Shown piece after piece: positions 16,861 to 20,426 of a stretch of DNA of 51,190 bases (its first letter is position 1; each line of letters opens with the position of its first letter). A program made the position numbers and the translations under genes. The DNA comes from Oscillospiraceae bacterium. GTDB taxonomy: Bacteria; Bacillota; Clostridia; Oscillospirales; Acutalibacteraceae. The DNA lies in the NCBI GenBank assembly GCA_028706415.1, contig JAQWBK010000001.1:1-51190 (forward strand), written 5' to 3'. The notes under the pieces were generated by a model. The model was not told where the DNA came from. It saw only the letters and a list, made by a program, of their open reading frames with translations, and did no database searches.

Positions 16861-18750
16861 TTAATTATATTGAATAAGAAGCTTTGACTGCTCCCAGGAT
16901 TGGATCTGGTTTTGTATGCGTTTTTTCTGGTCTTCGGTTACACTACTAAGCTTTCTTTTTACTGCAGTGATTGCATTATCAATTACATTTACTCTCTGGG
17001 GTGTATAAACCTCTGACGGCGCGGGCGGCACCCATGTAATACTGCTTGTCGCTCTGCATTGCTCGCTGCTGTCGGCAAGGGCTTTATAATATTTGAACAT
17101 TTCGTTGGATGCATTGCCGAAAAGTCTATTACATGCATCCTGAAGTATCTGCTCGCCTGTCATACTTGAATCCCACATTCCCTTTGAAGCCACATACCAC
17201 AGCGGCCAGCGCAATGTGAAGCTATCTTCGGTCTCCCTGTAAGCGGAATGAGGGCCTTGATCAACATAAACGTATTCTACTCCGTTGCTTTTCCAAAGCT
17301 TTTGATTTCTGGTTGCGACATTGCCCTGAACCCATGGGATATCCGCCCAGACAGCCTTGTCTGCCGCAATGCAGTTCCAATCCCAGATTGAAATGCTTTT
17401 CAAATTGGCCTTTTGAATGTATTCTTTGAAATTTCCAAGCCAAGACTGGGTGTAGGTGTTATGGGTAATTGCGTTGTAGCCGGAGGGTATGGCAAGATTT
17501 AAATCAAGCGGTACGGTCATACTGGTCTCACGGCAGAACATTACCTCAACATTAGGCTCGGCTTTAATTTTTTGCGGCGCGAAAAATGTTGAGTGATAGC
17601 TTAGAATGGTAATCTTTTTGTTCGGATATTTTTTGCCGGTAATCTTGGCTACATTATTTGCAAAGTACATTGTGGCGTCACTATCATTGCCAATGCCTGT
17701 ACACACAGAACATTCACACCAGTCCTCCTCCCAGCCGTCGTTTGCCGCAAGTGAAAACTGTGTCAAATTAGGGTCACGATCGAATTCTGCAATTATCTTT
17801 TTAGCAACTTCCGCTGCCAGATCTTTATTGGTATAACAGAACTGCCACCAAGTCGCAGCATAAGGGTCACGTTTGCCGTTTACAAGTGCATACCATTCGG
17901 GATGGCTTTGAAAATAAACATCTCTTGATACCAGCTTGGGAAGGTAATGGCCAAAAGTTTTCATATCCCCGCCCTGATACCATCTGCGTGAGAATTTCTG
18001 ATAGCCGTAATATACATTGGTAATGCGTGATGAAAACTGAGGCTTGTGGTCAACATTTAATTTATCGATGGCAAGGGTTTTAATGCTGGGGACAACCTGC
18101 CATAGCTCATCCGGCCCAAACCAGCCGCAACCAAGTTTTTCAAGGAACATATTAACTGCAAATTCGGTCCCTCTGTAATTTCCGTCATCGTTTCCAAGCA
18201 GCACCAGATAATTATTCACTCTTTTGATAATAACTCGTTCGGTGCCCGGATATCCCGTCGACTGCTTTATGCCGAGTGACTTCGTCTGTGCAGTCTGCCC
18301 TACCAAAATAAAATTGCCGTTGGTTCTGTCCACATTATCATAACCGATTTTTATAATTCCTCCCACAATCTCGCTTAAATATGCCTGCAAATCCTCTGCC
18401 GCCAATCTGACTTTATCGGTTGGCGATTTTGGAATTACAATTGTCGCTTTTGGCACTGAATTTTGGGCAATGATAAAATCGGTTGTATTGGGCTTGGTTA
18501 TAACGGTTGAAGATGCTGCGGTCGAGGAAGGGGTCCCGTTTGTTTTTCCGGCTGATGTCGAAGTGCCCCCTGTAGTATTAGATACCGCCTGTGTTGCAGT
18601 AGAGCTCGTCCCTACCGATGTGGAGCTCTCGGAATGGGATGAACTGCTTTCACCGTTATCTTTAACACATGAGGCTGAAGTTAATACAATAGAAACTGTA
18701 ACAAGGCACAGCATAATTGGCTTTAATGCTTTTGAATAGAACTTCATCAT
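16861..18750 (-). CDS. DUF4838-like putative glycosidase, extracellular lipoprotein form (left arm)
   Basis: A signal peptide ends in SASC (possible lipobox) and is followed by an S/T-rich linker. An N-terminal alpha/beta domain of the kind seen ahead of GH20/GH67-type barrels is present (ATIVIPKSP...AAEDLQAYL...ILVG). Core motifs are LGCGWFGPDELW, HPEWY, ANDGWEEDWCECSVC, IPWVQGNVATRN and LRWPLWYV. The DUF4838 assignment is from memory. Confidence 0.8.
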   Translation of the reverse strand: MMKFYSKALKPIMLCLVTVSIVLTSASCVKDNGESSSSHSESSTSVGTSSTATQAVSNTTGGTSTSAGKTNGTPSSTAASSTVITKPNTTDFIIAQNSVPKATIVIPKSPTDKVRLAAEDLQAYLSEIVGGIIKIGYDNVDRTNGNFILVGQTAQTKSLGIKQSTGYPGTERVIIKRVNNYLVLLGNDDGNYRGTEFAVNMFLEKLGCGWFGPDELWQVVPSIKTLAIDKLNVDHKPQFSSRITNVYYGYQKFSRRWYQGGDMKTFGHYLPKLVSRDVYFQSHPEWYALVNGKRDPYAATWWQFCYTNKDLAAEVAKKIIAEFDRDPNLTQFSLAANDGWEEDWCECSVCTGIGNDSDATMYFANNVAKITGKKYPNKKITILSYHSTFFAPQKIKAEPNVEVMFCRETSMTVPLDLNLAIPSGYNAITHNTYTQSWLGNFKEYIQKANLKSISIWDWNCIAADKAVWADIPWVQGNVATRNQKLWKSNGVEYVYVDQGPHSAYRETEDSFTLRWPLWYVASKGMWDSSMTGEQILQDACNRLFGNASNEMFKYYKALADSSEQCRATSSITWVPPAPSEVYTPQRVNVIDNAITAVKRKLSSVTEDQKKRIQNQIQSWEQSKLLIQYN

Positions 18751-20426
18751 AATCCTCCCTTGACTTCAATCGTCGACTTGGCCTTTTGCCATAAATTGAC
18801 CTGCATTTTTATTCGACTGCATACCTTACCTTTTGTTTGGGGAAGCATATCATTTATGCTTCTAACAATCCTGTCAACCCGTTCGACATTTTCAGGGGTG
18901 TACATTTCGTCGGGCTCCGGAGGATGCCACGCTATACTTTTAAAGCGGCAGCTTTGTGCAATATCAGCAAGGCAGTTATAATAGGCAAACATTAAATCGG
19001 CTGCATCCTCATATAACTTCTTGCAGGCATCCATTAAAATGTCTGAACCCGTCAAATCCTTATCCCACCAGGCTTTCGCCGCCACATACCACAACGGCCA
19101 ACGCAAAGGGAAGCTGTCAGCATCCTCATAAAAAACATCCAGAGGCCCCTGATCGTTATAAACATATTCAATGCCTTGGTCATGCCAGTATCGTATATTC
19201 CTTGTAGCAACATCGCCTTGAACCCAAGGGATGTCCTTCCATATTGGCTTGGCCGCTGTTATGCAATACCAATCCCATATGCAAATATGTTTTGGCTTAA
19301 CTTTATCAAGCCAATTTTCAAAATTTTCTTTCCACGGAACCGGATACTCGTTTTTGCTTTCATTAAATATAAATTTTTTATGATAACCATTATCCGGCCC
19401 TTTATCGACCGGAGAAAACATGTCTGTCTCTTTACAAAACATTATCTCGATATTTGGCTCCAGCTCGGTTATATTTTTCGGAAGTGAATACGTAGGAAAA
19501 TATGAAAGCACGGTCAAGCGGTGATCAGGATACTTCGTTCCAATTTTTTTTGCCAGCCTATTGGCAAAGGACATCACCTGTTCGGTTGTATTCCCTAATT
19601 TTTGGCACTCTGTGCACTCGCAAAATCCATGATACCAGCCATCATTTGCAGCTATTGAAAACTGCTTAATGTCAGGGTTTTGTGCAAACATGCTGCAAAT
19701 ATTCTCGGCGAACAAATCCACGAGCTGTTCATTCGAATAGCAGTACTGCCACCATTCGACAAATGGATTCCGCTGGCCGTCAACCATGCAAAACCATTCC
19801 GGATGCTGTTCAAAATATACCTCTCTGGGCACAAGACCGGTCAGGGCATGACCGCAACGCCTATGTTCACCCCCGAGATACCATCTCTCCCCTATCTCGG
19901 GAAAGAATTGAAGCACGTTATTCCGGCGTGATACAAACTGGGGCTTATGTAATATATCGAGGTAGCCGATTCGCACTTCTTTTTTCTCAGGAATTACATG
20001 CCACAGTTCATCCGGACCAAACCAGCCGCATCCCAACCATTCGAAAAACATTGTTACTGCAAACTGAGTTCCTTTAAAAAGCCCAAAATCATTTCCAACC
20101 AATATCAAGGTGTCCCCGTCGCGTTTCAATATCACCGCTTCAGGATCTTCATCCTTAAATCTTTGTATGCCAAGCATATCCGTAAAACGCGATGGCCCTA
20201 TAAGCACTTTTGCGCCCGTTATATCTAGCTCATCATTACAAACCGGAACATCTGATCCTGTGATTTTTTTTAATATACTGCAAAAATCTTCTGCTGCATC
20301 TTTAACCTTTTGTTCTGCCTTGAAGGAAACTACAACGTTGCAGTTTAATTTACCGTCGGCAAAAATGGTCATTTCGGTATAGTCCGAACGCAAATTATCC
20401 GTTTTATTCTCCGGCACCTGGAACAC
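18747..20426 (-). CDS. DUF4838-like putative glycosidase, cytoplasmic form (left arm)
   Basis: It carries the same motif set (LGCGWFGPDELW, HPEWF, ANDGWYHGFCECTEC, IPWVQGDVATRN, LRWPLWYV) without a signal peptide. The stop overlaps the next start as ATGA at 18747-18750. The start is GTG 20426 or ATG 20372. Confidence 0.8.
   Translation of the reverse strand: MFQVPENKTDNLRSDYTEMTIFADGKLNCNVVVSFKAEQKVKDAAEDFCSILKKITGSDVPVCNDELDITGAKVLIGPSRFTDMLGIQRFKDEDPEAVILKRDGDTLILVGNDFGLFKGTQFAVTMFFEWLGCGWFGPDELWHVIPEKKEVRIGYLDILHKPQFVSRRNNVLQFFPEIGERWYLGGEHRRCGHALTGLVPREVYFEQHPEWFCMVDGQRNPFVEWWQYCYSNEQLVDLFAENICSMFAQNPDIKQFSIAANDGWYHGFCECTECQKLGNTTEQVMSFANRLAKKIGTKYPDHRLTVLSYFPTYSLPKNITELEPNIEIMFCKETDMFSPVDKGPDNGYHKKFIFNESKNEYPVPWKENFENWLDKVKPKHICIWDWYCITAAKPIWKDIPWVQGDVATRNIRYWHDQGIEYVYNDQGPLDVFYEDADSFPLRWPLWYVAAKAWWDKDLTGSDILMDACKKLYEDAADLMFAYYNCLADIAQSCRFKSIAWHPPEPDEMYTPENVERVDRIVRSINDMLPQTKGKVCSRIKMQVNLWQKAKSTIEVKGGL

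Follow-up and report, generated by a model that had tools for sequence, protein, structure and literature searches.

Paralogous DUF4838 glycosidases of a gut Oscillospiraceae locus share a family-wide four-cysteine site with a probable structural zinc ion

A 51,190-nucleotide stretch from an Oscillospiraceae bacterium (assembly GCA_028706415.1, contig JAQWBK010000001.1, positions 1 to 51,190), hereafter called the window, carries five related genes, in which an earlier reading of the letters alone (the sequence-only reading) had noticed a shared C-x-C-x-x-C motif beside a putative active-site acid and a division into lipoprotein and cytoplasmic forms. The locus raises two questions, namely what these cysteines do in proteins that resemble glycosidases, and why exported and cytoplasmic versions are kept together. 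Our best explanation as a whole, to which we give a probability of roughly 0.65, is that the proteins are DUF4838 glycosidases carrying a structural Zn(Cys)4 clasp, and that they would break down a glycan first outside and then inside the cell.

All five open reading frames (ORFs) were found in the ORF list and its translations exactly at the positions and on the strands previously given (Table 1), and all matched Pfam PF16126 (DUF4838) above its gathering score of 26.6 bits. The four long forms scored 131-137 bits (131.6-137.2, E about 1e-38 to 1e-40), and the short form, 37164..38120, scored 46.6 bits (E 3.5e-12, profile positions 54-215). DUF4838 was the sole domain obtained in the Pfam scan of the five proteins, with no match to F5/8 type C or to glycoside hydrolase (GH) families GH20 or GH84. 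In the five-way alignment, 16861..18750 and 47443..49311 showed 65% identity, and the short form showed only 24% identity with 16861..18750. Every motif quoted in the sequence-only reading was present: HP(E/D/Q)W(Y/F), ANDG(W/F), the cysteine motifs WCECSVC, FCECTEC, FCECEEC, and KCRCHEC, the long-form motifs LGCGW(F/Y)G.DELW, IPWVQG(N/D)V..RN, and LRWPLWYV, and WLDDHTDS in the short form. The five genes encode glycoside hydrolases that are paralogues within the DUF4838 superfamily, the source of the catalytic domain in CAZy families GH163 and GH185.

The three Cys of the C-x-C-x-x-C triad were invariant across the five-way alignment, for a motif whose chance expectation is 0.003-0.02 per protein. 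All five paralogues also have, exactly 40 residues before the triad, a fourth Cys that does not vary in the alignment; it belongs to the motif WQ(F/Y/M)C-Y(T/S)N of the long forms and to LCPSN of the short one. The triad itself starts 7 residues past the Asp at the end of strand β4. In the AlphaFold models, the fourth Cys stands just before helix α3 and the triad in the loop after β4; in the model of 18747..20426, for example, the fourth Cys directly precedes helix 230-246 and the triad loop follows strand 250-254. The co-conserved set is made up of one Cys in the β3-α3 loop and the C-x-C-x-x-C in the β4-α4 loop, and the modelled topology suggests that the four Cys would tie these two loops together.

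Conservation of the four positions was followed in four samples: long-form relatives, short-form relatives, diverse representatives at 50% identity, and a distant environmental clade. The triad was kept in all 120 closest relatives of the long forms, so its invariance, first noticed among the paralogues, reaches far beyond the locus. At the fourth position, a 73-sequence alignment of long-form relatives had Cys in 64 and Asp in 9. In the 120 closest homologues of the short form, all four Cys were invariant together with D141 and D142. A profile search of 1.84 billion representatives returned 15,651 DUF4838 members at E <= 1e-3; we examined the best 150 of these 15,651 clusters (50% identity), which extend to E 1e-52, and the Cys region is covered by 136. 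All four Cys were found in 122 of the 136 and none in 12, with one case each of C-H-C-C and Q-C-T-C. The distant clade consists of proteins of ~760 residues from Planctomycetota, Hydrogenedentota, KSB1, and Omnitrophota, and was sampled from the best Pfam-scoring representative; 119 of 120 members had the four Cys and the remaining one had zero.

Loss of the cysteines was therefore all-or-none in 13 cases (the 12 diverse representatives and the one member of the distant clade), and where a single Cys was replaced, the replacement was Asp or His only. Four other invariant or near-invariant Cys of the subfamily, used as a control, showed every mixed loss pattern in the wider family and no all-or-none behavior. 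The 12 Cys-less representatives retained other residues of the family: D259 in 11, H190 in 8, H205 in 10, N286 in all 12, and Y306 in 11. The Asp after β4 was present in all five paralogues and in 134 of the 136 representatives, its equivalence to D309 of the characterized enzyme Sp_0475 being one of position only. Judged from these alignments, the four-Cys site is a feature of the DUF4838 family as a whole and not specific to this locus, and its loss pattern is that of a coupled, dispensable set of metal ligands, unlike that of catalytic residues. The all-or-none loss of the Cys with the Asp kept (11/12) argues for a structural site and against a catalytic one.

The fold and the active site were examined with AlphaFold2 and Foldseek. 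The model of 18747..20426 (predicted local distance difference test, pLDDT, 93.3; predicted template modelling score, pTM, 0.92) matched GH115 (4c90), GH67 (1mqq), GH84 (CpOGA), and GH20 (Bt4394) with E values of 2e-11 to 1e-6. The long forms have an N-terminal α/β domain of the GH20b/GH67N-like type followed by a (β/α)8 barrel, and DUF4838 relatives match Pfam Glyco_hydro_67N and Glyco_hydro_20b. The two-domain architecture proposed earlier was thus borne out for the long forms; the short form is a barrel alone. Its model showed a complete eight-strand barrel (pLDDT 96.8) with neither the N-terminal α/β domain nor the C-terminal helical bundle, and its best Foldseek matches were GH20, GH5, and GH42 barrels. 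We also considered that the short form might be a gene fragment; this was ruled out by its 338 homologues, the best 120 of which have a similar length of about 312-350 aa, and by the complete modelled barrel. Searches of the PDB by sequence and by profile gave no DUF4838 structure, only spurious matches, among them designed proteins and RecA fusions. The long forms carry an N-D pair at the end of β4, whereas a D-D pair, which is the GH84-type arrangement, is invariant in the short form and occurs in 99 of the 120 distant-clade members. The long forms also have Trp at model positions 381/383, at which Tyr prevails in the wider family.

The superfamily contains enzymes of published activity. The GH163 enzyme BT1035 of Bacteroides thetaiotaomicron is a surface endo-β-N-acetylglucosaminidase that cuts the N-acetylglucosamine (GlcNAc)-β1,2-mannose (Man) linkage, GlcNAc-β1,2-Man, in complex N-glycans (PMC10154615, PMC10570127). 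The GH185 enzyme Sp_0475 of Streptococcus pneumoniae is a cytoplasmic exo-acting 6-sulfo-β-GlcNAcase that uses a substrate-assisted mechanism with D309 as the proposed acid/base, and its best structural matches are GH115 and GH84 (PMC10570127), in agreement with those of the 18747..20426 model. The sequence-only reading had allowed that a published activity might explain the cysteine motif; activities are indeed published for GH163 and GH185, but the papers on BT1035 and Sp_0475 (PMC10570127, PMC10154615) do not mention cysteines, and neither 'Cys' nor 'zinc' occurs in the GH185 account. In CAZy, a GH185 member is one that resembles Sp_0475 in sequence (> about 30% identity, cluster 3 in the published network). 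None of the 150 representatives scanned matched the residue numbering of Sp_0475.

Compared by description, Sp_0475 and the window proteins have in common a DUF4838 (PF16126) catalytic domain and a triosephosphate isomerase (TIM) barrel, and Sp_0475 is cytoplasmic with no signal peptide, as are three of the paralogues. The essential Asp of Sp_0475 (D309) may correspond, by its position, to the invariant β4 Asp of the paralogues. They differ in that the long forms have Trp where the catalytic Tyr would probably lie, and neither a sulfatase gene nor any other gene related to sulfate was found in the window locus. BT1035, likewise judged by description, shares the DUF4838 domain and cuts a large glycan at the cell surface ahead of its import, as we propose for the lipoprotein paralogues. 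However, it has a C-terminal F5/8 type C domain, carried by none of the five window proteins, and works within a Bacteroides Sus-like system, as opposed to a Gram-positive lipoprotein with an ABC (ATP-binding cassette) importer. The N-terminal α/β domain and (β/α)8 barrel of the long forms are also those of GH84 O-GlcNAcases and GH20 hexosaminidases; the β4 pair in the window is N-D or D-D and not the D-E of GH20, and, as described above, Pfam matched neither family. We know of no Cys cluster in GH84 or GH20.

The localization of the paralogues was read from their N-termini. Those of 16861-18750 and 47443-49311 open with an n-region rich in Lys, continue with a hydrophobic core, and end in a lipobox, after which comes a Ser/Thr-rich linker of ~65 residues, and a GGAGG-type ribosome-binding site precedes the ATG of both genes (AAGGGAGG for 16861..18750). 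The other three paralogues begin with the folded domain, and even their longest possible reading frames add no N-terminal extension. The lipoprotein/cytoplasmic split that had been proposed was thereby recovered, with lipoboxes and linkers in two proteins and no extension in three. Among 120 long homologues, 72 had no lipobox (median 563 aa) and 48 had both lipobox and linker (median 607 aa), so that homologues of the exported class share these features; a few of the 120 had a transmembrane helix as the anchor instead of a lipobox. The public gene call of 16861-18750 (P0078, 531 aa) uses an internal GTG start and thereby loses the lipobox and linker along with the signal peptide. Better supported as the start is the upstream ATG, because of its strong ribosome-binding site, its 4-base overlap with the stop of the preceding gene, and the agreement of the homologues.

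One exported and one cytoplasmic form are direct neighbors in the window. The start of 16861..18750 overlaps the stop of 18747..20426 by 4 bases, suggesting co-translation. A scan of GTDB species genomes yielded 73 loci, with several genomes appearing four to six times; nearly all of the loci belong to metagenome-assembled genomes of uncultured gut bacteria (Oscillospiraceae, Ruminococcaceae, Candidatus Avimonas, and Eubacteriales) from human, chicken, and goat. Among these loci, the cytoplasmic-then-lipoprotein tandem occurred in at least 12 species genomes and a lipoprotein-lipoprotein tandem 6 times. A metagenomic contig, L001, repeats the gene order of the window: a Yip1/NHL protein, DUF5696, ABC permeases, a solute-binding protein, the cytoplasmic and then the lipoprotein DUF4838, DUF5107-TPR, and finally the short DUF4838. 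The pairing noticed in the sequence-only reading is thus evolutionarily conserved, being found in tandem in at least 12 genomes as well as in L001.

The two localization classes had 92 columns in common at >= 90% conservation. Over the 73 homologues, the sole consistent residue difference was at the position after the active-site Tyr in LSY(F/H), which is Phe in the cytoplasmic class and His in the exported class. A second difference was a short loop insertion (GYHKKFIF...) in the cytoplasmic forms. So few differences would fit the same bond chemistry on substrates of different size, while not proving it. From the protein sequences and gene order, we infer a sequential processing of one glycan, in which the glycan would first be cut extracellularly by the two lipoprotein forms, its fragments would enter through the adjacent ABC importers, and the cytoplasmic forms would complete their breakdown.

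A serious rival to sequential processing is diversification, in which the exported and cytoplasmic paralogues would be enzymes for different glycans that merely lie together. Such an origin could account for the presence of at least three sets of solute-binding protein and permease genes and two AraC regulators in the locus, and for the lipoprotein-lipoprotein tandem arrays and the four to six paralogues of related genomes; moreover, functional diversity is a known trait of the DUF4838 family (PMC10570127). It accords less well with a cytoplasmic-then-lipoprotein pair that has been kept together in at least 12 genomes, with the 4-base overlap of the tandem genes in the window, or with 92 shared conserved columns against a consistent difference of one residue and one loop. 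We therefore regard diversification as possible, though somewhat unlikely.

As for the cysteines, the site most likely holds a structural zinc ion, as suggested by its conservation pattern. The four Cys would bind one Zn2+ as a clasp joining two loops beside the active site, like the Cys-Zn cluster of GH42 β-galactosidases; the clasp would stabilize the catalytic loop and take no part in the chemistry. The β4 Asp would serve as general acid/base, the part played by D309 in Sp_0475. Zinc is favored because Cys-to-Asp and Cys-to-His exchanges are usual in Zn sites. The suggestion of a metal site (Zn or Fe-S) made from the triad was accordingly upheld as far as metal-like behavior is concerned, and needed correction in that the ligands number four instead of three, that the site is family-wide, and that Fe-S is unlikely.

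A pair of disulfide bonds with no metal would be lost all-or-none just as a zinc site is, and two of the paralogues are extracellular. However, conservation of the four Cys in cytoplasmic forms disfavors disulfides: three of the five paralogues and the 72 of 120 long homologues with no lipobox appear to be cytoplasmic, where disulfides are unstable, and so do the relatives of the short form (312-350 aa), which leave no room for a long N-terminal extension. Furthermore, the C-x-C and C-x-x-C spacings are those of metal knuckles, and the lone Cys-to-Asp exchange (9/73) would leave an unpaired Cys, whereas Asp would still be a ligand in a zinc site. We consider disulfides quite improbable.

Much the same holds for a catalytic metal site, whether it is a Zn-bound Cys nucleophile as in GH127/GH146 or a metal acting as a Lewis acid. 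The triad does begin 5-7 residues past the invariant β4 Asp, and a catalytic Zn(Cys3Glu) site has a precedent among glycosidases (PMC10850190). Nevertheless, 13 full-length members lack all four Cys, and the β4 Asp persists in 11 of the 12 Cys-less representatives, most of which retain the other family-wide residues too; GH127/GH146 enzymes have an (α/α)6 fold, whereas a (β/α)8 barrel was modelled for the window proteins, and the GH185 mechanism is explained with no Cys at all. A catalytic role is thus very improbable. Finally, an Fe-S center, a rubredoxin-like iron, or a redox switch coupling activity to the redox state of the cell, although suggested in part (Fe-S) by the sequence-only reading and by the presence of four conserved Cys in an anaerobe, is highly improbable, because the same four Cys are kept in lipoproteins with no twin-arginine motif, which are hence exported unfolded and could hardly carry a cytoplasmically assembled cluster, because the spacing is unlike that of classical 4Fe-4S motifs, and because lone Asp or His replacements are typical of Zn sites.

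The closest counterpart of the zinc clasp proposed here is found in GH42. The 'Cys-Zn' cluster of the Bacillus β-galactosidase Gal42 comprises Cys113, 153, 155, and 158, the last three just after the acid/base Asn147-Glu148, and has been described as structural and not conserved across GH42 (PMC8573354). We confirmed the corresponding segment of the Thermus A4 enzyme (1KWG) in its PDB sequence: HYC106FSS ... TDNE141YGCHDTVRC150YC152PRC155. In sequence and modelled secondary structure, the window site fits this GH42-type pattern of one β3-α3 Cys plus C-x-C-x-x-C after the β4 acid. Both groups are TIM-barrel glycosidases with the catalytic acid at the end of β4 (N-E in GH42, N-D in the long forms); the acid is followed by the first triad Cys after 5-7 residues in DUF4838 and 5-9 in GH42, and the fourth Cys lies 38-40 and 40-44 residues from the triad, respectively. 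Just as the cluster is not universal in GH42, DUF4838 shows all-or-none loss. GH42 differs in belonging to clan GH-A and in having no N-terminal GH20b/GH67N-like domain, and it was one of many TIM-barrel matches of the short form in Foldseek. This comparison suggests that DUF4838 and GH42 share the same kind of site; homology was not shown, and the resemblance may be convergent.

Several points weigh against the explanation given at the outset. Homology with GH42 was tried by hhalign, which aligned Cys to Cys with an E value of 0.11 and a probability of 0.5%, that is, not significantly. The four-sulphur geometry of the proposed clasp is taken from the topology of the models and not from coordinates. 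The Trp-for-Tyr exchange and the N-D pair of the long forms indicate that their substrate, and even their mechanism, may differ from those of GH163 and GH185. In addition, no gene of the locus names the glycan.

The DUF4838 family, its activities, and the counterpart site of GH42 were already known, and what appears to be unreported is the family-wide Zn clasp, as proposed from the sequences. The family is large (15,651 representative clusters), and the literature that we found describes two characterized enzymes, BT1035 and Sp_0475. A Zn(Cys)4 clasp by the catalytic loop would bear on zinc supplementation, on the avoidance of EDTA (ethylenediaminetetraacetic acid) and oxidants, and on the reading of AlphaFold models. 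The recurring exported and cytoplasmic pair points to an uncharacterized glycan-foraging pathway in uncultured gut Oscillospiraceae and offers a natural pair for finding a new specificity. A bolder view, which we find doubtful, is that the whole DUF4838 superfamily inherited the four-Cys site from its ancestor as a hallmark so far undescribed, perhaps homologous to the GH42 cluster, or that the subfamilies of the window are new GH families. With such homology, GH163 and GH185 would be linked evolutionarily to clan GH-A, and not only to GH20/GH84; in the second case, the N-D/Trp long forms and the 320-residue barrel would represent a novel specificity within a conserved glycan-utilization cassette of uncultured gut Oscillospiraceae made up entirely of DUF proteins (DUF5696, DUF5107, and a Yip1/NHL membrane protein). 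The understanding of glycosidases in general is unchanged by these findings.

Table 1 Positions of the DUF4838 paralogues, their four-cysteine sites, and the adjacent ABC importers in the window.
Feature	Position	Strand	Basis
Exported lipoprotein DUF4838 glycosidase paralogue, 629 aa	16861..18750	-	ORF, Pfam PF16126 137 bits
Its signal peptide and lipobox, residues 1-28, LTSAS-C28	18667..18750	-	Read from sequence
Its Ser/Thr-rich linker, to about residue 95	18466-18666	-	Read from sequence
Its triad CECSVC, residues 345-350	17701..17718	-	Five-way alignment and homologues
Its fourth Cys, C305	17836-17838	-	Alignment
Its N337-D338 pair, β4 end	17737-17742	-	Alignment
Cytoplasmic DUF4838 paralogue, 559 aa (longest ORF; gene caller 556 aa), no signal peptide	18747..20426	-	ORF, Pfam, AlphaFold2
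Its triad CECTEC	19605..19622	-	Alignment
Its fourth Cys	19740-19742	-	Alignment
Its N-D pair	19641-19646	-	Alignment
Short stand-alone barrel DUF4838, 318 aa, cytoplasmic	37164..38120	+	Pfam, homologues, AlphaFold2
Its triad CRCHEC, residues 148-153	37605..37622	+	Alignment
Its fourth Cys, C108	37485-37487	+	Alignment
Its D141-D142 pair	37584-37589	+	Alignment
Cytoplasmic DUF4838 paralogue, 555 aa	38422..40089	+	ORF, Pfam
Its triad	39208-39225	+	
Its fourth Cys	39088-39090	+	
Its N-D pair	39184-39189	+	
Exported lipoprotein DUF4838 paralogue, 622 aa	47443..49311	+	ORF, Pfam
Its signal peptide and lipobox LVA-C23, then Ser/Thr linker	47443-47511	+	
Its triad	48451-48468	+	
Its fourth Cys	48331-48333	+	
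Its N-D pair	48427-48432	+	
Codon after the Tyr of LSY(F/H)	19524-19526, 39127-39129, 17620-17622, 48370-48372	-, +, -, +	
ABC sugar importer directly upstream of the tandem pair: solute-binding lipoprotein 20438-21739, permease 21812-22834	20438..22834	-	Pfam SBP_bac_1, BPD_transp_1
ABC importer directly upstream of 47443..49311: permease 45034-46077, solute-binding ORF 45978-47417	45034..47417	+	Pfam BPD_transp_1, SBP_bac_1, SBP_bac_8

Both tandem and single lipoprotein genes have an ABC importer upstream (Table 1), and L001 repeats the order of solute-binding protein, cytoplasmic DUF4838, and lipoprotein DUF4838. The window as a whole codes for several sets of ABC sugar importers, a pair of AraC regulators, a ROK kinase, and two GFO/IDH/MocA oxidoreductases. 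Neither the DUF4838 genes nor most of their neighbors matched NCBIfam; for the Yip1/NHL protein, DUF5107-TPR, and the two oxidoreductases, its matches were all far below the cut-off. A literature search on the neighboring genes returned nothing pointing to a substrate.

The DUF4838 genes are accompanied by DUF5696 (768 aa), a 690-aa membrane protein with NHL repeats and Yip1, and DUF5107-TPR. These companions lie at 26557-30951 (-) and 40115-42094 (+) of the window and at 1-3982 and 14268-16262 of L001, in the same order in an unrelated contig. They have no known function, informative solved relative, or NCBIfam name; a PDB sequence search gave no match for DUF5696 and, for DUF5107, only the uncharacterized TPR-domain protein 5cd6. 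Three ORFs with no match in Pfam or NCBIfam, 22940-24385 (-), 24450-25451 (-), and 44005-44982 (+), each have a signal peptide and a single C-terminal transmembrane helix and stand between ABC permease genes, in the position expected for a second permease or a binding protein; two of the three look paralogous, and L001 has counterparts at the same place.

The two GFO/IDH/MocA oxidoreductases (14573-16726, -) lie directly downstream of the tandem DUF4838 pair and resemble, far below the cut-off, the models of inositol 2-dehydrogenase, levoglucosan dehydrogenase, UDP-GlcNAc 3-dehydrogenase, and glycoside 3-dehydrogenase. They might carry out an oxidative sugar-processing step of the same pathway. 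The solute-binding protein at 32956-35859 (-) is of unusual size (967 aa), with its solute-binding domain starting from ~residue 578 and the first ~570 residues having no Pfam match. The solute-binding ORF 45978-47417 (+) overlaps the preceding permease gene by ~100 bases and has an odd N-terminus rich in Cys and Arg, and its true start is probably further downstream. The AddA/AddB helicase-nuclease genes (window 6001-12000) have a G+C content of 52-55%, compared with 41-46% in the sugar locus and most of the window.

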